NCBI GenBank assembly: GCA_041651415.1
Contig: JBAZJH010000003.1
Span: 15,309 to 79,308, forward strand
DNA length: 64,000 nucleotides
DNA from: Minisyncoccota bacterium
GTDB taxonomy: Bacteria; Patescibacteriota; Minisyncoccia; UBA6257; XYB1-36-10
Reading direction: 5' to 3'
Shown: positions 1,558-47,933 of the stretch, one piece after another
How the letters are laid out: every line of letters starts with the position of its first letter
Numbering within the stretch: position 1 is the first letter of the stretch
Notes under the pieces: generated by a model
The model's database searches: none
Seen by the model: only the letters and a program-made list of their open reading frames with translations
What the model was told of the DNA's origin: nothing
Translations under genes and position numbers: made by a program

Positions 1558-2565
1558 TTATTTTTTCAGAAGTTTAGCGGCATCTTCGGGACTGACAACG
1601 GTTATTTCAATGCCGGAGCCGATTTCCATTCCGGCAGAAACAGAAAATTTGGGAACGATGTCAAAATGCCAATGATAGAAACCGAATTTGCTTTGATTTT
1701 TGAAGGGAGCGGAATGAAGATAAAAATTATAATCGGGATCATTCAAAGTTTTTTCCAAACGGGAAAGAGAAAATTGAAGAGCTTCAACAATAGAGCTTAA
1801 AACATCGGCAGGAGTTTCTTCAAAAGAAGAGAAGTGATTTTTAGGAAAAACGCGGACATCAAAAGGTTCTTTGGAAGCAAAGCGAGTGAAAGCGATGGCG
1901 CCTTTATTTTCAAAAATAACCCTTTTCCCCTCTTTTTGTTCAAGCTCAATAACAGAGCAATAAGCGCAATGCCTGTTATTCTTAAAAAATTTTTCGGAAC
2001 CGGAAAAAGAATGGCGGACGATTTCCGGAATAAGAGGCAGAGCCATAAGCTGATAATGCGGATGAAAAATGGAAGCGCCGGCGGAAGACCCCCAGTTATG
2101 AAAGAGAAGACCGTAGGCAGTGTTTTTATCTTGCTTATAAAATTTAAATCTTTCGGCGGCAGCCACAAGAACATTTAAGGCTTCATCTTTTTTAAGTTTT
2201 GAAAAATTGGCAGTATGGCTTTTAGTGACAATTAAATCGTGATAGCCATAGGCAGGTTGAGAAAAATAAAGAGCGCCTTCTTCGCTTATTTCATTTTTTT
2301 TAAGAGAAGGAAGAAGAGCGGGAAATTTATTTTCAAAAATTTGGGTTTTCCAATTTTTTAGGCAAGGCCAAACATAGGAAGGCGCGGGGTTGCCGGATTT
2401 TACCGGATTTTCAAAAGGACAAACGGATTTCGGAGAAGGTTGCCTTTTTTCTTTTCTTTTTTTAATCAAGTCGCCGGGCTTTTTATTCCGATTAGAAGCG
2501 ATAATCACCCAGTCGCCCGTGACAAGGTCCTGGCGAAGTTCGGGAGCGTTAGAGAAGTTATCCAT
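1558..2565 (-). CDS. galT: galactose-1-phosphate uridylyltransferase (HIT family, GalT-like)
   Basis: CPFENP zinc-binding region and HPHYQ HIT-like motif; start taken at internal Met (MDNFSNAPEL). Confidence 0.75.
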   Translation of the reverse strand: MDNFSNAPELRQDLVTGDWVIIASNRNKKPGDLIKKRKEKRQPSPKSVCPFENPVKSGNPAPSYVWPCLKNWKTQIFENKFPALLPSLKKNEISEEGALYFSQPAYGYHDLIVTKSHTANFSKLKKDEALNVLVAAAERFKFYKQDKNTAYGLLFHNWGSSAGASIFHPHYQLMALPLIPEIVRHSFSGSEKFFKNNRHCAYCSVIELEQKEGKRVIFENKGAIAFTRFASKEPFDVRVFPKNHFSSFEETPADVLSSIVEALQFSLSRLEKTLNDPDYNFYLHSAPFKNQSKFGFYHWHFDIVPKFSVSAGMEIGSGIEITVVSPEDAAKLLKK

Positions 2566-42850: not shown

Positions 42851-44296
42851 ATGATAAAGGAGCTTATAAAAGAAAAACCGGATGGAATAATAGCGAAAGC
42901 TTACGCTTTTGCCGAGAAAAAACATAACGGACAAAAAAGAAAAACAGGAGAGCCGTATTTTAACCATCCTATAGCAACCGCCACGCAATTATTTAAATGG
43001 GGACTAGACGAGGAAACAATAGCGGCAGGATTATTGCACGATGTTTTGGAAGACACAAAAACAACAATAGAAGAAATGGAGAAAGAATTCGGCGAAAAGA
43101 TAACAGCGATAGTGGCGGGAGTTTCCAAAATCGGAAAAGTAAAATACCGAGGCAAGGAAGCGCAGGCGGAACTTCTCCGCAAAATGATGCTGTCTTTATC
43201 AGACGATGTCCGGACGGTTTTTGTGAAATTAGCCGACCGATTGCATAATATGAAAACTTTAGGAGCGCTGCCTCTCCAAAAACAAAAAAGAATCGCTTTA
43301 GAAACCGCAGAAATTTACGCGCCACTCGCCTATCGCCTCGGCATGAGAGAGCTTTCAGGAGAACTGGAAGATTTGGCTTTTCCTTTTATCGACCCGAGAA
43401 ATCACGAAATGATTCTGAGGCTGGTAGAAAAGCATTACGGAAGAAGAGAAAGGTATCTTTTAAAAGTTAAACCGATAATAGAGGAAGCGCTTTTGAAAGG
43501 AGGAATAAACGAACATGAGATAAGTTTTCGGGCGAAAAAATATTACAGCCTTTTCAAAAAGCTGAAGAAATACGATATGGAGATAGAAAATATTTACGAC
43601 TTGGTGGCTTTTCGAATAATCGCGCCGACTCTCGAAAAATGCTACACAACTCTTGGGATAATTCATTCTCTGTGGCCGCCAGTGCCAGGAAGAATAAAAG
43701 ATTATATCGCCAATCCAAAACCGAACGGATATAGGAGTTTGCACACTACGGTTTTTTGCTTGGACGGAAAAATAACAGAGTTTCAGATAAGGACAAAAGA
43801 AATGCACGAGGAAGCGGAAAACGGAATAGCCGCCCACTGGATTTATAAAAGAGCCGGAGAATTCAACAAAATAAAATATAAGAATTTAAGCCAGCTTTCC
43901 AAAGAAACGGAATGGTTAAAAAAAACAAAAAAGCAAAAAACGGATTTTAAAAGCGCGGAAGTATTCATCAACGCGCTGAAAGTTGATTTCTTTAAAGACA
44001 GAATCTACGCCATCACACCGAAGGGAGAAGTGATTGACCTGCCAGCCAAAGCGACGCCGGTTGATTTCGCTTATAAAGTGCACAGTTTACTCGGGCACGA
44101 AACTGTCGGAGCAAGAATAAACGGCAAGATAGCGCCTTTAAGTTTTAAGCTTAATTCCGGAGACATAGTGGAAATTTTAAGACAAAGAGGAAAAAAGCCA
44201 TCAAAAGATTGGCTGGGATTTGTGGCGACAGAAAGCGCCAAAGACCATATAAAAAATTACTTGAATAAGAAAGAAAAAAGATTAAAAGAAAATTAG
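42851..44296 (+). CDS. rel: bifunctional (p)ppGpp synthetase/hydrolase, short RelA/SpoT homolog (HD + synthetase + TGS, no ACT)
   Basis: HD motif HDVLED, synthetase domain, TGS region (ITPKGEVIDLP...). Confidence 0.85.
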   Translation: MIKELIKEKPDGIIAKAYAFAEKKHNGQKRKTGEPYFNHPIATATQLFKWGLDEETIAAGLLHDVLEDTKTTIEEMEKEFGEKITAIVAGVSKIGKVKYRGKEAQAELLRKMMLSLSDDVRTVFVKLADRLHNMKTLGALPLQKQKRIALETAEIYAPLAYRLGMRELSGELEDLAFPFIDPRNHEMILRLVEKHYGRRERYLLKVKPIIEEALLKGGINEHEISFRAKKYYSLFKKLKKYDMEIENIYDLVAFRIIAPTLEKCYTTLGIIHSLWPPVPGRIKDYIANPKPNGYRSLHTTVFCLDGKITEFQIRTKEMHEEAENGIAAHWIYKRAGEFNKIKYKNLSQLSKETEWLKKTKKQKTDFKSAEVFINALKVDFFKDRIYAITPKGEVIDLPAKATPVDFAYKVHSLLGHETVGARINGKIAPLSFKLNSGDIVEILRQRGKKPSKDWLGFVATESAKDHIKNYLNKKEKRLKEN

Positions 44297-45378
44297 AGAC
44301 TTTCCCCGTCTTTAGAAACACGATTAATGATGCTTTTCAGTTCTTCGGCAGAACTGAAGGAGATGGTGATTTTTCCGGTTTCGCCGTTTTTATCAACTTT
44401 TACTTTAGTGCCGAGAAGCTCGGAAAGAGTTTCTTCCAGATATTTTATTTCCGGGTCGATACTAGCGAAGCGGTTAATGGCGTTTAGGCGAGTGTTGGTG
44501 GAAACAATGCGATTTTTTAGTTCACGGACGCTAAGATTGTTTTTAAGCAAATCTTCAAAAATCTTCTGTTGGTTATCAAGGTTGGAAACAGAAAGAAGAA
44601 GGCGGGCCTGACTCTCCCCTATTTTTCCTTCTTCGACAGCCTGCTGAATATAAGAAGGAAGGGAAAGAAGACGCATAGAGTTAGCGACCACTTCGCGGCT
44701 TTTGCCGAGGCGAGAAGCGATTTCACGCTGAGTCATGCCGTATTCGTCTTGAAGCTTGGCGAAGGCGCGGGCCGATTCAATCGGATTCAAATCTTCGCGC
44801 TGGAGGTTTTCAATAATAGCCAGTTCCAGTTTTTCTTTTTTAGGAGTGGAGTTTTTAACGATAACCGGCACGCGTTCCAGACCGGCCAGTTTAGAAGCCA
44901 TCAAGCGGCGTTCGCCGGCGATAAGCTCGTATTCCACTTCGGCGCCAGTCGGCGTGTCTTTGATATTTTTTGTGACGACTAAAGGCTGAAGAACGCCGAA
45001 TTCACGAATGGAAGAAGCAAGTTCTTTTAAGGCCTCTTCGTCAAAAAAGCGGCGGGGCTGATAAGGATTAGGTTTGATTTTTTCAACTTCGATATGAAAA
45101 ATATGACCGACAGCTTCCGGTTCTTTTCCTTCCCGAGAAAAATCAGCGGCGGGAGCGGAAGAGAGAATTTCTTTAGGTTCCGCAACAGACAGATTTCCGA
45201 GCGGCGCGGGAGAGGCCGGCAAAGAAACCGGTTCAGCTGGAAGAAAGGTCGGCGTTTCTTTTTTCGGTTCTTCAAAATTGGCGTTCGGATTATCGCCTAA
45301 AGAAAAATTCACGGGAGAATTATTTTCTTCTTTTTTGCTGTTGTCGGGTATCAAAGACCCAAGTCCAAGTCCTTGCAT
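44293..45378 (-). CDS. parB: chromosome partitioning protein ParB/Spo0J with about 110-aa low-complexity N-terminal extension
   Basis: ParB box GERRLMASKLAG, HTH; Pro/Ala/Glu-rich N-terminus. Confidence 0.85.
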   Translation of the reverse strand: MQGLGLGSLIPDNSKKEENNSPVNFSLGDNPNANFEEPKKETPTFLPAEPVSLPASPAPLGNLSVAEPKEILSSAPAADFSREGKEPEAVGHIFHIEVEKIKPNPYQPRRFFDEEALKELASSIREFGVLQPLVVTKNIKDTPTGAEVEYELIAGERRLMASKLAGLERVPVIVKNSTPKKEKLELAIIENLQREDLNPIESARAFAKLQDEYGMTQREIASRLGKSREVVANSMRLLSLPSYIQQAVEEGKIGESQARLLLSVSNLDNQQKIFEDLLKNNLSVRELKNRIVSTNTRLNAINRFASIDPEIKYLEETLSELLGTKVKVDKNGETGKITISFSSAEELKSIINRVSKDGESL

Positions 45379-45380
45379 AA

Positions 45381-46193
45381 TTAAAATTTGATATTAAAAT
45401 TTCCAAAATCTTTTTGAATGTCGGGGAGAGCGCGTTCCTGGTCGATGACTTCTTTCGCAAGGCGCTTATAAGCAAGAGCGCCGGGAGAGTCGGGGTGATA
45501 GAGAATAACGGGTTTGCCAAAACTCGGAGCTTCCGCAAGAGAGACGGAACGGGGAATTTCCGTTTCAAAAACATGATGGCGGAAATGACGGCGAATTTCT
45601 TTAGCGACCTCGCGTGCCAAGCGTTCTCTTTTATCAAACATAGTAATGAGAGCGCCGGAAATTTTTATGGGGTGACTCATATTATTTTGGATAAGGTAAA
45701 TAGTTTCAAGAAGCTGGCTCAAACCTTCCAAACTGTAATATTCGGCTTGAACGGGTATAAGAACTTCGTCGGAAGCCACCATGCCGTTTACCGTTAATAA
45801 ACTCAAGCTCGGAGGAAGGTCAACTAAAATATAATCGTAGCGATGGCGGAAATTGTTAAGAAATTTTCTTAAATAGTATTCCCTTTCCGGAACATTAACG
45901 AGTTCAACCAAAGCTCCGGCCAAATGATTGTTGGCGGGAATGTAGTGAAGATTGATAACGGGAGAGCCGCGAAGAATTTTTTCCGGAGAAACGAGGCCGG
46001 CAATACCGTGATAAATGCTTTCTTCGCTTAAGTTGTGGCGATGGCCCAAACCGGAAGAAGCATTGCCTTGCGGGTCAAAATCAACAAGCAAAACTCTCCG
46101 GCCAAGCGCGGCAAGATACGCTCCTAAATTGACGGAAGTGGTAGTTTTTCCCGTTCCCCCTTTTTGATTTATAACAGAGATGACGCGAGCCAT
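45381..46193 (-). CDS. parA: chromosome partitioning ATPase ParA/Soj
   Basis: Deviant Walker A KGGTGKTT. Confidence 0.9.
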   Translation of the reverse strand: MARVISVINQKGGTGKTTTSVNLGAYLAALGRRVLLVDFDPQGNASSGLGHRHNLSEESIYHGIAGLVSPEKILRGSPVINLHYIPANNHLAGALVELVNVPEREYYLRKFLNNFRHRYDYILVDLPPSLSLLTVNGMVASDEVLIPVQAEYYSLEGLSQLLETIYLIQNNMSHPIKISGALITMFDKRERLAREVAKEIRRHFRHHVFETEIPRSVSLAEAPSFGKPVILYHPDSPGALAYKRLAKEVIDQERALPDIQKDFGNFNIKF

Positions 46194-46307
46194 AGATGTA
46201 AAAATATCAAATCACAAAAAACAAATTACAAATAAAGACGGATTTTGATTTTTTCGGATTTATTATCTATTATATCAAGAGCTAAGCTTTAAATAAAGAA
46301 GGAAGCC

Positions 46308-46375
46308 CGAGTGGCGGAACCCCGACCTTAAAAAGTCGGGGCGAGATTGCTAAAGTCATAGCAATAGACATAAAG
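46308..46375 (+). other. degenerate tRNA-Leu-like fragment (acceptor/D 5' part plus TAA anticodon stem-loop, no T-arm)
   Basis: GCCCGAGTGGCGGAAC identical to 5' 16 nt of adjacent tRNA-Leu; CCCCGACCTTAAAAAGTCGGGG anticodon-like hairpin; no GTTCGA T-loop. Confidence 0.3.
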
Positions 46376-46403
46376 CAAAGCAATTTAAAAATTTCAAAAA
46401 TAT

Positions 46404-46485
46404 GCCCGAGTGGCGGAACTGGTATACGCGCACGACTCAAAATCGTGTCTCGTAAGAGGTGTGGGTTCGACTCCCACCTCGGGCA
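46404..46485 (+). tRNA. tRNA-Leu(CAA)
   Basis: GCCCGAGTGGCGGAACTGGTATACGCGCACGACTCAAAATCGTGTCTCGTAAGAGGTGTGGGTTCGACTCCCACCTCGGGCA; long variable arm, anticodon CAA. Confidence 0.85.
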
Positions 46486-46522
46486 CCGAAATTAGTTTAT
46501 TAGTTTAAAAGTTAAATATTCA

Positions 46523-47071
46523 ATGGAAAAAGAAATTTTTAAACAAATAAAGAAGAAATATGGAAATTATGCAAGTTTTGCAATTTGGGGAAAAGATTTA
46601 AATAATGTAAATATTATTGAGAAAAATGTAGAGATTCTTCACGGAAAGATTGTTTTTGTTGGTCTTAACATTTCAAAGTCAATAAATAAATTCCAAAATT
46701 TTCATTTTAAACATAAAGGTGGAAGGGATAACTGGTTAAAGGAATTATTAAATGATTCCTTTATTTTTAAAGGAGCTTATATGACAGATATAATAAAAAA
46801 CAATATTTCTTCTAGACAAAATAAATTAAAGATGAGTGATAAAGAGAAAGAGAAAAATCTTGAATTATTTGAAAAAGAATTAATAGCTTTAAATACAAAA
46901 CCGGAATTGATTGCTTTCGGAAATAAAACTTATAAATTATTAGATAAAATTCCTGAAAAATTATACAAGGATAGATATAAAGTTTCTCACTATGCCAGTT
47001 GGATAAAGAAAAATGATTTTTTTAGAGAAGTAAAAAAGGTGGAAAATAAAATTTTAAGTAAAAATAAATAG
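46523..47071 (+). CDS. hypothetical protein, possible uracil-DNA glycosylase-superfamily fold (tentative)
   Basis: Markedly AT-rich versus neighbours; motif order VFVGLNIS / AYMTDIIKN / LIAFGNKTYKLL / SHYASWIK parallels UDG motifs (GEAPG / Y.TN.VKC / .ALG..A / HPSP). Confidence 0.4.
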   Translation: MEKEIFKQIKKKYGNYASFAIWGKDLNNVNIIEKNVEILHGKIVFVGLNISKSINKFQNFHFKHKGGRDNWLKELLNDSFIFKGAYMTDIIKNNISSRQNKLKMSDKEKEKNLELFEKELIALNTKPELIAFGNKTYKLLDKIPEKLYKDRYKVSHYASWIKKNDFFREVKKVENKILSKNK

Positions 47072-47399
47072 TTGACAAAAATTGAGAAAAGAATAGAATT
47101 AAAAAATTAACCTTTTGGTTAAAAGAAAGAACTTTTAAAAGCGTTAGGAGAGTATTATGGGAAGTTTGTTTTCTTCAAATGGGAATGGTTTTGCTCCGGG
47201 AAAAGCAGGTGTTTGTTCAGGTTGTGTAAGAAAAGATGAACGAAAAAGGTGCAAAGCCGGAGTAACAAGTTTACCGATTATCGGAGGAAAGTGTTTCTGC
47301 GGACGGAAACAAATAGCGGCTAATAGGATTTTACCGCCTCAAAAAGAGGGAAAATTTCTTCAACAAAAAAATATTTAGCACAAAATAAAATACCCTCGC

Positions 47400-47933
47400 T
47401 TAGTTTAAGCGGGGGTTTTCTTTTTCTTTAAAAAAGAGGGGCTTAAGCAAAAATGGAATAAAGGAAGCGATAATAGCGCCGAAGATGACATCAGTCGGCC
47501 AATGAGCGCCAACAATGATTCTGGAGATTCCAACAAGAAAAGAGAGGGCTATAAAAATCGAACCCCATTTTTTATTAAAAATCCAAACGCAAAAAGCGAG
47601 GGTAAAAAGAAAGGTGGCGTGGCCGGAAGGAAAAGAAAATCCGGAGCCGCGGATAACCGGTTCAAAATCAAGATAGTCGGCCGGACGCTCGCGGCGAAAA
47701 GCATAATTAAGAATTTCAAAAATAACGCCGCGCGAGACAAAAAGAGAAGCGAGAGACAGAGCAAAAAAATAAAATTTATGGCGCCAATCTTTCATTCTCC
47801 AGCCCAAGAAAATGGCGGCAAAAACCAAAATAAAAATAACGTATTTCGCGAAAAAAACAGAAAGAGCGTCGATAACCCAATTTTTTTCAGCCAAACTTCG
47901 AAAAATTTGGAAAAAATAAAGGTCAAAAGCCAT
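47400..47933 (-). CDS. PAP2-family membrane phosphatase (undecaprenyl-PP/PG-P phosphatase-like)
   Basis: KxxxxxxRP, PSGH and SRxxxxxHxxxD motifs (RRERP, FPSGHA, SRIIVGAHWPTD). Confidence 0.7.
   Translation of the reverse strand: MAFDLYFFQIFRSLAEKNWVIDALSVFFAKYVIFILVFAAIFLGWRMKDWRHKFYFFALSLASLFVSRGVIFEILNYAFRRERPADYLDFEPVIRGSGFSFPSGHATFLFTLAFCVWIFNKKWGSIFIALSFLVGISRIIVGAHWPTDVIFGAIIASFIPFLLKPLFFKEKENPRLN

Follow-up and report, generated by a model that had tools for sequence, protein, structure and literature searches.

The stretch analysed here, 64,000 nucleotides (nt) of contig JBAZJH010000003.1 ("the window"), comes from a metagenome-assembled genome (MAG) of Candidatus Paceibacterota, within the candidate phyla radiation (CPR). 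Its segment 46488-47071 is a horizontally acquired single-gene insertion in an otherwise conserved block of parB-parA, tRNA-Leu, a small open reading frame (ORF), PAP2, S18 and SSB. The one gene in this segment encodes a 182-amino-acid (aa) protein of predicted uracil-DNA glycosylase (UDG) fold, and the protein belongs to a family that is unannotated in Pfam, NCBIfam, PADLOC and PHROGs. We put at about 50% the probability that this gene is an acquired, single-gene UDG-fold glycosylase that acts on a base other than uracil and has a role in genetic conflict, a reading that leans on analogy with characterised enzymes. The locus is laid out as follows, in window coordinates.

44293-45378, minus strand: parB
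45381-46193, minus strand: parA, 270 aa, left anchor of the syntenic block (from the ORF list; Pfam CbiA/ParA on the identical protein)
46194-46403: intergenic region, 210 nt
46404-46487, plus strand: tRNA-Leu(CAA), intact (ARAGORN; Rfam RF00005)
46488-46522: spacer or leader, 35 nt
46488-47071, plus strand: inserted segment, 584 nt, made up of the 35-nt leader and the ORF
46523-47071, plus strand: 182-aa UDG-fold ORF of the unannotated family
47072-47099, plus strand: promoter-like TTGACA-16-TAGAAT (11/12) for the 73-aa ORF
47157-47378, plus strand: small Cys-rich ORF, 73 aa
47392-47416, plus strand: intrinsic-terminator-like hairpin and T run, closing the stretch of tRNA, ORF and small ORF
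47400-47933, minus strand: PAP2-family phosphatase, right anchor of the block (Pfam PF01569, E 1e-19)
beyond 47933, minus strand: rpsR, ssb, rpsF and rpoC

The limits of the insertion were set by comparison with relatives, which were located via the ParA anchor, one genome per GTDB species. The window's ParA is 62-82% identical to the ParA proteins that adjoin tRNA-Leu(CAA) in five of them (L001-L005). The most similar ParA among these relatives (82%) is that of L002, a Liptonbacteria MAG in which the order is parA, 68 nt, tRNA-Leu(CAA), a small Cys-rich ORF, PAP2, S18 and SSB; in L005, a Wolfebacteria MAG, the order is SSB, S18, PAP2, tRNA-Leu and parA. A metagenome scan with a 22-mer tRNA pattern returned mostly unrelated phyla, with parA beside the tRNA only in L103, L109 and L138, and a scan with a 36-nt tRNA pattern gave no match. 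No relative of the 182-aa protein is present at any of these eight loci (L001-L005, L103, L109 and L138). A promoter-like TTGACT-17-TATTAT starts 2 nt past the tRNA in L002, and the equivalent TTGACA-16-TAGAAT of the window starts directly after the stop codon of the ORF; the extra DNA is therefore 46488-47071, that is, 584 nt and one gene, lying between the 3' end of the tRNA and the -35 box of the next gene's promoter.

The composition of this segment is foreign as well. The GC content of the ORF is 22.8%, against a mean of 40.0 +/- 4.3% over 549-nt windows (z = -4.0), and the ORF stretch is both the GC minimum of the window and its sole region at or below 30%, which bears out a remark in the preliminary description of the locus (made from the sequence alone) about a low-GC gene downstream of the tRNA. 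The region is 100% identical in L093 and L094, which represent the same strain in other samples and are the only other contigs with an identical ParA, so that the locus is unlikely to be an artefact of a single assembly. The tRNA itself is well supported (Rfam RF00005, 59 bits, E 6.6e-12; gathering score 29).

The same description had proposed a small integration islet at a tRNA hot spot. The hot spot is real: at the orthologous tRNA, L003 carries a recombinase element and L004 unrelated cargo. Of the islet, the foreign gene and the presence/absence polymorphism at a conserved site (relative to L002 and L005) stand, and the marks of integration do not. The insert holds no integrase or recombinase, and its 584 nt contain no ORF of 50 aa or more besides the UDG-like gene; the 18-nt 3' end of the tRNA has no second copy in the window with up to 3 mismatches allowed, and no match of 10 nt or more to the tRNA 3' end occurs within 1.5 kb. 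The arrangement resembles tRNA-targeted genomic islands in that a foreign gene lies directly 3' of a tRNA gene, and in that the same tRNA abuts a serine-recombinase element in L003, but it differs from them in the lack of an integrase and of a direct repeat of the 3'-end attachment (att) type, and in comprising a single gene in 584 nt. The insert is an islet only as a foreign single gene at a hot spot.

In L003, also a Liptonbacteria MAG, the recombinase ORF (523 aa, 584-2155; tRNA-Leu at 2124-2207, minus strand) is flanked by perfect 147-nt inverted repeats at 248-394 and 1982-2128, and the right repeat arm reaches the 3' end of the tRNA-Leu(CAA); positions 248-2128 may represent an element at this same tRNA site that inverts or moves. 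On the other side of the insertion, the 73-aa Cys-rich ORF is native context. It comes with a ribosome-binding site (AGGAG), a promoter close to consensus and a terminator, has no match in Pfam or NCBIfam, and shows weak similarity (E 0.006) to the Cys-rich small ORF at the equivalent position of L002.

The 182-aa product is 100% identical to NCBI entry WC435_03170 of Candidatus Paceibacterota bacterium. It has 208 homologues at E<=0.01, every one labelled "hypothetical", and a profile search of 1.84 billion cluster representatives retrieves 1,522 members at E<=1e-3 (985 at E<=1e-10), giving a family of about 1,500 clusters at 50% identity. Searches of Pfam, NCBIfam, PADLOC and PHROGs returned no match to the protein, and neither phmmer with the single sequence nor hmmsearch with the family profile matched a PDB sequence. 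A match to VirDNA-topo-I_N (E 0.061) was dismissed as noise. The Pfam UDG family, PF03167, is matched weakly by only three of 59 members (best E 0.0021), under the cut-off.

The fold is clearer than the sequence. An AlphaFold2 model built from 59 homologues (pLDDT 89.8, pTM 0.89) shows the four-stranded parallel beta-sheet alpha/beta fold of the UDG superfamily, common to families 1-6, and the closest PDB structures are SMUG2 and the family 4 and 5 UDGs. The fold-search scores are 12.2 for P. heparinus SMUG2 (158 residues aligned), 11.4 for T. maritima UDG, 11.1 for T. thermophilus UDG (2d3y), 10.7 for UdgX, 10.2 for SMUG1, 10.0 for TDG, 9.8 for BdiUNG, and 9.7 and 8.8 for MUG. Two PDB fold searches contained no entry named Brig among their matches, and the viral fold library BFVD gave distant UDG-like matches only and no family member. 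Profile alignments are short and non-significant, although they coincide with the motifs where a match would be expected: hhalign places VGLNIS over GINPG of E. coli MUG (E 0.38) and AYMTDIIK over VYITNIVKC of the T. thermophilus family 4 UDG (E 0.16). On its predicted structure, the protein lies within the UDG structural superfamily, yet it fails the sequence definitions of every annotated family.

The order of the motifs agrees with this placement, as the preliminary description had noticed from the sequence; on the model they lie at the same strand ends as in UDGs, at the following positions and with these putative counterparts.

40-49, end of strand 1: VGLN-I-S, UDG motif 1 (G47-L48-N49-I50-S51)
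about 10 residues after motif 1: NFH (F60-H61), with the stacking aromatic residue
85-91, strand 2: G-x-YMTDIIK (D89), UDG motif 3
128-132, strand 3: AFG
after strand 4 (150-154): HY(S/A) (H156-Y157), UDG motif 2, not HPS

Across 269 aligned members, the motifs GLN-x-S, YMTD, AFG and HY(S/A) are near-invariant. N49 is kept in 266 of the 269, F60 in 264 and H61 in all, and H156 occurs in 257 of the 262 members that are ungapped there. N49, F60-H61, D89 and H156 are the putative active-site residues, and residues so nearly invariant argue for an enzyme rather than a scaffold. The telling position is D89, which is Asp in 267 of the 269 members and Asn in only one; the strand-2 Asn of UDG motif 3, which makes bidentate hydrogen bonds to the Watson-Crick face of uracil, is thus replaced by Asp in this family.

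If these positions correspond to those of known UDGs, the protein would be a DNA glycosylase of the monofunctional type and would flip its pyrimidine target from the helix. F60 of the NFH motif would stack on the flipped base, N49 in the GLN-x-S loop would occupy the site of the catalytic Asn of MUG, TDG and SMUG, and H156 would take the position of the motif-2 His, which touches O2 of the leaving base. Across the superfamily, the motif-1 residue, catalytic or water-positioning, is D, N or E, and family 2 enzymes have Asn in place of the motif-2 His. In UdgX and family 4 enzymes, recognition of the uracil face falls to the motif-3 Asn, base stacking to the motif-1 Phe and the contact with O2 to the motif-2 His (PMC10776899). 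D89 would replace the Asn by which canonical UDGs read O4 and N3-H of uracil. Three precedents bear on this exchange: human UNG with the N204D change excises cytosine (PMC11162499); Brig1 uses E147, at a position where UDGs frequently have Asn in place of Glu (PMC11078745); and Brig3 requires D127, is inactive as D127N and needs N50, with a backbone contact from S52 to the 5-substituent (10.64898/2026.02.25.707755). Brig1 and Brig3 are the two characterised UDG-superfamily enzymes that act on cytosine derivatives of phage DNA, and both have acidic pocket residues (PMC11078745; 10.64898/2026.02.25.707755). Because D89 stands for the uracil-reading Asn, as in these cases, the preferred substrate is probably not uracil, and by this analogy would be one that bears an exocyclic amino group, for instance a derivative of cytosine.

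The family is not readily assigned to any of the known groups. Its putative Asn-type motif 1 and His-type motif 2 resemble those of SMUG1. Compared with family 3 (SMUG1/SMUG2) and family 2 (MUG/TDG) enzymes, it shows no more than 17% identity and neither a sequence nor a profile match of significance; its motif 1 reads GLN-I-S where theirs reads G-(I/M)-N-P-G, and a near-invariant Asp stands for the base-reading Asn. Its members are also shorter (182-200 aa), patchily distributed and compositionally foreign. Neither iron-sulfur cluster cysteines nor a GE(A/G/Q)PG motif 1 is present, and no covalent-crosslinking His loop is evident in the family. The human UNG N204D enzyme has the same Asn-to-Asp change at the base-reading position in strand 2, but was engineered from a family 1 enzyme and carries the motifs GQDPYH and HPSPLS, whereas the family described here is natural and has Asn-type motif 1 chemistry.

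The Brig glycosylases (Brig1, Brig2 and Brig3) are similar in being stand-alone UDG-fold enzymes, with defence or mobile contexts like those of some members sampled here, and both Brig1 (E147) and Brig3 (D127) have an acidic pocket residue in place of the UDG Asn, as D89 would be here. The N-P-S motif of Brig3 (N50, required in defence, and S52) resembles N-I-S of the 182-aa protein. Brig3 (cosmid GenBank PX942695) is larger, however, with 77 residues from N50 to D127 as opposed to 40 from N49 to D89, and its intercalating N225 loop lies beyond the length of the 182-aa protein; Brig2 targets modified thymidines. The N-to-D spacing argues for at least a different subfamily from Brig3, the Brigs being compared by published description. 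Brig2 homologues and Dag glycosylases tend to lie in AT-rich regions (Getz et al.). In architecture, the 182-aa protein is closest to SMUG- and MUG-type enzymes, and in its likely biology closest to the Brig glycosylases.

About ten genomic contexts of family members were sampled. At all ten loci compared, the family gene falls below its flanks in GC content, the difference ranging from 1.7 to 19.5 points. The neighbours in L217 are type I restriction-modification S and M subunits, an AAA_15 ATPase, Mrr and SocA_Panacea; those in L085 are a type I R subunit, Replic_Relax, a CoiA-like nuclease, an IS30-like gene and two tRNAs. L215 has a neighbouring Bro-N gene, and L089 has SNase, Hypoth_Ymh, a ParB-methyltransferase and a tRNA-Ser about 400 nt away. 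In one member (P0181, 550 aa), the UDG-like domain is fused, with its motifs intact, to TIR_2 (E 1.8e-13) and DUF4268 (E 1.7e-28), the latter most often being linked to GmrSD type IV restriction enzymes (PMC4619093). A few copies are on plasmids (Butyrivibrio pCY186, Halococcus, Arthrobacter and L. paracasei), and no member was found in 50,697 phage genomes. Together, the contexts favour a role in conflict between host and mobile DNA, and they are compatible with service to either side and with plain repair.

Several further observations were made on the family. A second fusion protein (P0144, 371 aa) carries DUF4268 alone with all glycosylase motifs intact, and several further members of 330-440 aa have extensions without a Pfam match. 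The copy on the Butyrivibrio proteoclasticus plasmid pCY186 (L219, 58845-59432) is 42% identical to P0098. Two members, L084:6001-6576 and L087:6001-6597, are on contigs of about 110 kb, represent two clades and have as neighbours TFIIB, a RING finger, a protein kinase, glycosyltransferases of families 7 and 8, and a T4-endoV-like Pyr_excise gene; this gene content suggests that the contigs are giant viruses of eukaryotes.

We consider the whole explanation to be as follows. An AT-rich gene would have entered by horizontal transfer, coming to lie past tRNA-Leu(CAA) and ahead of the promoter of the native gene that follows. Its product would be a stand-alone UDG-fold enzyme, a conflict module of one gene that would create abasic sites in modified DNA of foreign origin. 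The insert brings neither a terminator nor a strong promoter with it, and the gene may be read through from the tRNA. What the protein does in this particular genome is argued by analogy.

A number of points weigh against this explanation. The likeness to UDGs is at the level of the fold, with identity and profile scores as low as noted above, and the residue equivalences rest on motif order and predicted secondary structure. Replacement of the Asn alone is not enough to determine specificity: Lys occupies the Asn/Asp position in E. coli MUG, and TDG excises the cytosine derivatives 5fC and 5caC yet keeps the Asn. The comparison with the Brig systems is made by published description, and PADLOC has no model that matches the family. 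Among the contexts, those of L081, L091 and L218 are uninformative, and the window copy itself lies amid housekeeping genes, outside any defence island. The giant-virus-like contigs fit a virus-side or repair role as well as they fit host defence. Finally, the pCY186 copy is found about 6 kb downstream of ssb among small hypothetical genes that all run the same way, a layout reminiscent of plasmid leading regions, which would suggest counter-defence. The preliminary description had raised an anti-restriction role, and this plasmid copy is the single weak hint of one, so that the suggestion was not sustained.

These points lead to two other accounts of the gene. The stronger is that it encodes a housekeeping base-excision-repair glycosylase, for uracil, hypoxanthine, xanthine or another deaminated base, that was acquired by a repair-poor CPR genome and has no part in conflict. 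The UDG fold itself, the repair enzymes (SMUG2, family 4 and 5 UDGs) that are its closest structures, and the SMUG1-like pairing of motif-1 Asn and motif-2 His would all suit such an enzyme, as would the housekeeping surroundings of the L081 and L218 homologues in addition to those of the window copy, and the pyrimidine-dimer glycosylase, a repair gene, near the copy in L087. A repair enzyme for uracil would hardly be expected to have Asp for the uracil-reading Asn in 267 of 269 members, however, as the same change switches UNG from uracil to cytosine. A core repair gene normally matches the composition of its host and is inherited vertically, whereas this family is patchily distributed, shifted towards AT in all ten loci and absent from the syntenic relatives; the associations with restriction genes, Mrr and TIR also speak for conflict. 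We therefore regard a repair function as unlikely, while taking it as the alternative that best survives the evidence.

Less probable again is that the protein serves a mobile element or virus, whether as a counter-defence or genome-maintenance glycosylase or as a non-catalytic UDG-fold DNA-binding protein, and that the window copy is a stranded remnant of a lost element. This would account for the viral- or eukaryote-looking genes (TFIIB, RING, protein kinase) on the L084 and L087 contigs, for the plasmid copies, including the ssb-linked one of pCY186, and for an insertion that stands alone, poor in promoter signals, at a tRNA next to which a relative has a recombinase element. It is at odds with the absence of members from the phage records and of a PHROG match, and with the TIR fusion and restriction neighbourhoods, which are typical of host defence. 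The near-invariant catalytic-type residues oppose a purely structural role, and the ORF is intact and identical in three assemblies.

Preferring, as before, an acquired conflict glycosylase, we turn to the second feature of the locus, a fragment of the tRNA in the intergenic region upstream of it. The relevant elements of the window, and the related Y-shaped elements that lie just upstream of the tRNA-Leu(CAA) promoter in three distant relatives, are these.

46305-46320, plus strand: exact 16-nt copy of the tRNA-Leu(CAA) 5' end, 99 nt before the tRNA start
46320-46341, plus strand: hairpin 1, CCCCGAC / CUUAAAAA / GUCGGGG, 7 base pairs
46346-46365, plus strand: hairpin 2, AUUGCUA / AAGUCA / UAGCAAU, 7 base pairs
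46365-46392, plus strand: promoter-like TAGACA-16-AAAAAT, 11 nt before the tRNA (consensus match only)
L005:6804-6876, minus strand: Y-shaped element
L004:6789-6861, minus strand: Y-shaped element
L103:972-1050, plus strand: Y-shaped element

The 16-mer GCCCGAGTGGCGGAAC occurs exactly twice in the window, at 46305-46320 and at the start of the tRNA (46404-46419), with 83 nt between the two repeats; with up to 2 mismatches allowed, shuffled sequences contain a mean of 0.04 matches to it, and none contains two. The copy of the first 16 nt was thus correctly recognised in the preliminary description, as were the absence of a D stem and T arm and the presence of an anticodon-like stem-loop, which is hairpin 1 with the loop given above. 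The fragment has no 3' acceptor strand either. Recognition by tRNA models, which that description had named as a refuting outcome, did not occur: ARAGORN calls no tRNA in 46305-46370, and Rfam RF00005 has no match there at E<=10 (46150-47450 searched). Together with its hairpins, the fragment folds better than shuffled sequences (z -2.5 to -3.1), and hairpins 1 and 2 are not repeated elsewhere in the window. The stem of hairpin 1 has the look of an anticodon arm that has diverged (CCCGA/UCGGG, as against CACGA/UCGUG in the tRNA itself), consistent with descent from a copy of tRNA-Leu.

The relatives show that such a copy is not peculiar to the window. In L004 and L005, whose ParA proteins are 62-64% identical to that of the window, the first 10 nt of the genome's own tRNA-Leu(CAA) recur at exactly -99; the copies at this position read GCCGCGGTGG in L004, GCCTAGGTGG in L005 and GCCCGAGTGG in the window. 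L103 has a 9/11 copy of its own tRNA 5' end at about -104. The copies in L004, L005 and L103 co-vary with the tRNA acceptor stem of their own genome, and all three loci lack the UDG-like gene. In each of the three, the tRNA 5' copy and a complementary 3' strand form a closing stem around two hairpins, giving a Y-shaped element that folds well (z -4.5, -4.7 and -3.9) and is followed directly by a T run and the TTGAC-type -35 box of the tRNA promoter.

The pairing statistics of the Y element come from only these three sequences and 22 consensus pairs. Both sides have changed in 10 of the 22 pairs, compared with 3.6 +/- 1.5 in shuffles (0 of 500 reach 10) and with at most 3 in a control in which the partners were slid by 1-3 columns, and 90.9% of cells are in standard pairs, compared with a shuffle mean of 75.1%. 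Rfam has no family for the element as found in the window or in L005. A covariance model of it recovers, among 78 sources, only the three sequences on which it was trained and not the window fragment. We link the fragment to the Y element because of its -99 position, its 5' copy and the likeness of its hairpin 1 to that of L005 (CCGAC...GUCGG); it consists of the 16-nt 5' copy, this hairpin and a second one, with no closing strand. On sequence grounds, the fragment is read as a degenerate relic of an older, tRNA-Leu-derived upstream Y element, separate from the UDG-like gene and retained by other genomes of Paceibacteria type. The distribution of the element is patchy, as L001, L002 and L003 have none, and does not depend on that of the UDG-like gene, and about 70 tRNA-Leu loci of other phyla with the same anticodon arm yielded no further upstream copy. 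The Y element could be a functional tRNA-like leader or small RNA, or else a DNA site. A terminator was rejected as an explanation of the hairpins, since no plus-strand gene lies upstream and since the T run in L004, L005 and L103 is apart from the stem and overlaps the TTGAC-type -35 box.

A few other duplications of this tRNA were seen. L115 and L138 have tRNA 5' copies of 24 nt and 14-15 nt, at about -79/-80 and -78, respectively; each is followed by a palindrome of the type CCTGCC...GGCAGG that recurs elsewhere on both contigs, and in L115 the copy resumes through the anticodon loop after the palindrome. The palindrome is a dispersed repeat that seems to associate with tRNA-Leu 5' duplications. 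Copies of the tRNA 3' end (13-19 nt) are present 150-190 nt downstream of tRNA-Leu in L004, L005 and L103, and not in the window; in L005, a direct repeat of about 70 nt spans the tRNA 3' end and a terminator hairpin, and in both L004 and L005 the motif GGGTGAGC(G/A)GTGA precedes the 3'-end copy.

That a single integration event left the fragment at one end and the AT-rich gene at the other, the fragment being an att scar or pseudo-tRNA as first suggested, is very improbable. An exact 16-nt tRNA repeat 99 nt upstream, the status of tRNA genes as classic integration sites, the serine recombinase element at this tRNA in L003, and the lack of both fragment and gene in L002, the relative with the most similar ParA, would fit it. 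Against it, the repeat is a copy of the 5' end on the upstream side of the tRNA, whereas the gene is on the downstream side, past the 3' end; no 3'-end repeat follows the gene, only 83 nt separate the repeats, and L004, L005 and L103 have the co-varying 5' copy in a Y structure with no gene.

A bolder version of the conflict-glycosylase reading, to which we attach less weight and which we offer as tentative, is that the proteins form a new, widespread family of the UDG superfamily, marked by the GLN-x-S, NFH, YMTD and HY-S motifs, that owing to its natural Asn-to-Asp switch excises cytosine-type or other amino-bearing modified bases and travels as a mobile, one-gene immune or counter-immune module through CPR and other bacteria, archaeal and bacterial plasmids, and giant viruses, with the Y element possibly a functional RNA. 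The co-varying upstream copy of the tRNA 5' end is, in any event, a small unexplained regularity. Descriptions of glycosylases acting on modified phage bases (Brig1-3, Dag) go back no further than 2024, and every new enzyme has brought a new base specificity to light. An unannotated family of about 1,500 clusters with a natural Asp at the cytosine-switch position of UNG is a testable candidate for another, and such an enzyme could interest builders of glycosylase-based base editors or of tools for detecting modified bases. For the organism, a lone, recently gained gene in the streamlined genome of a CPR bacterium would mean that episymbionts take up single conflict-type genes at tRNA-linked sites.

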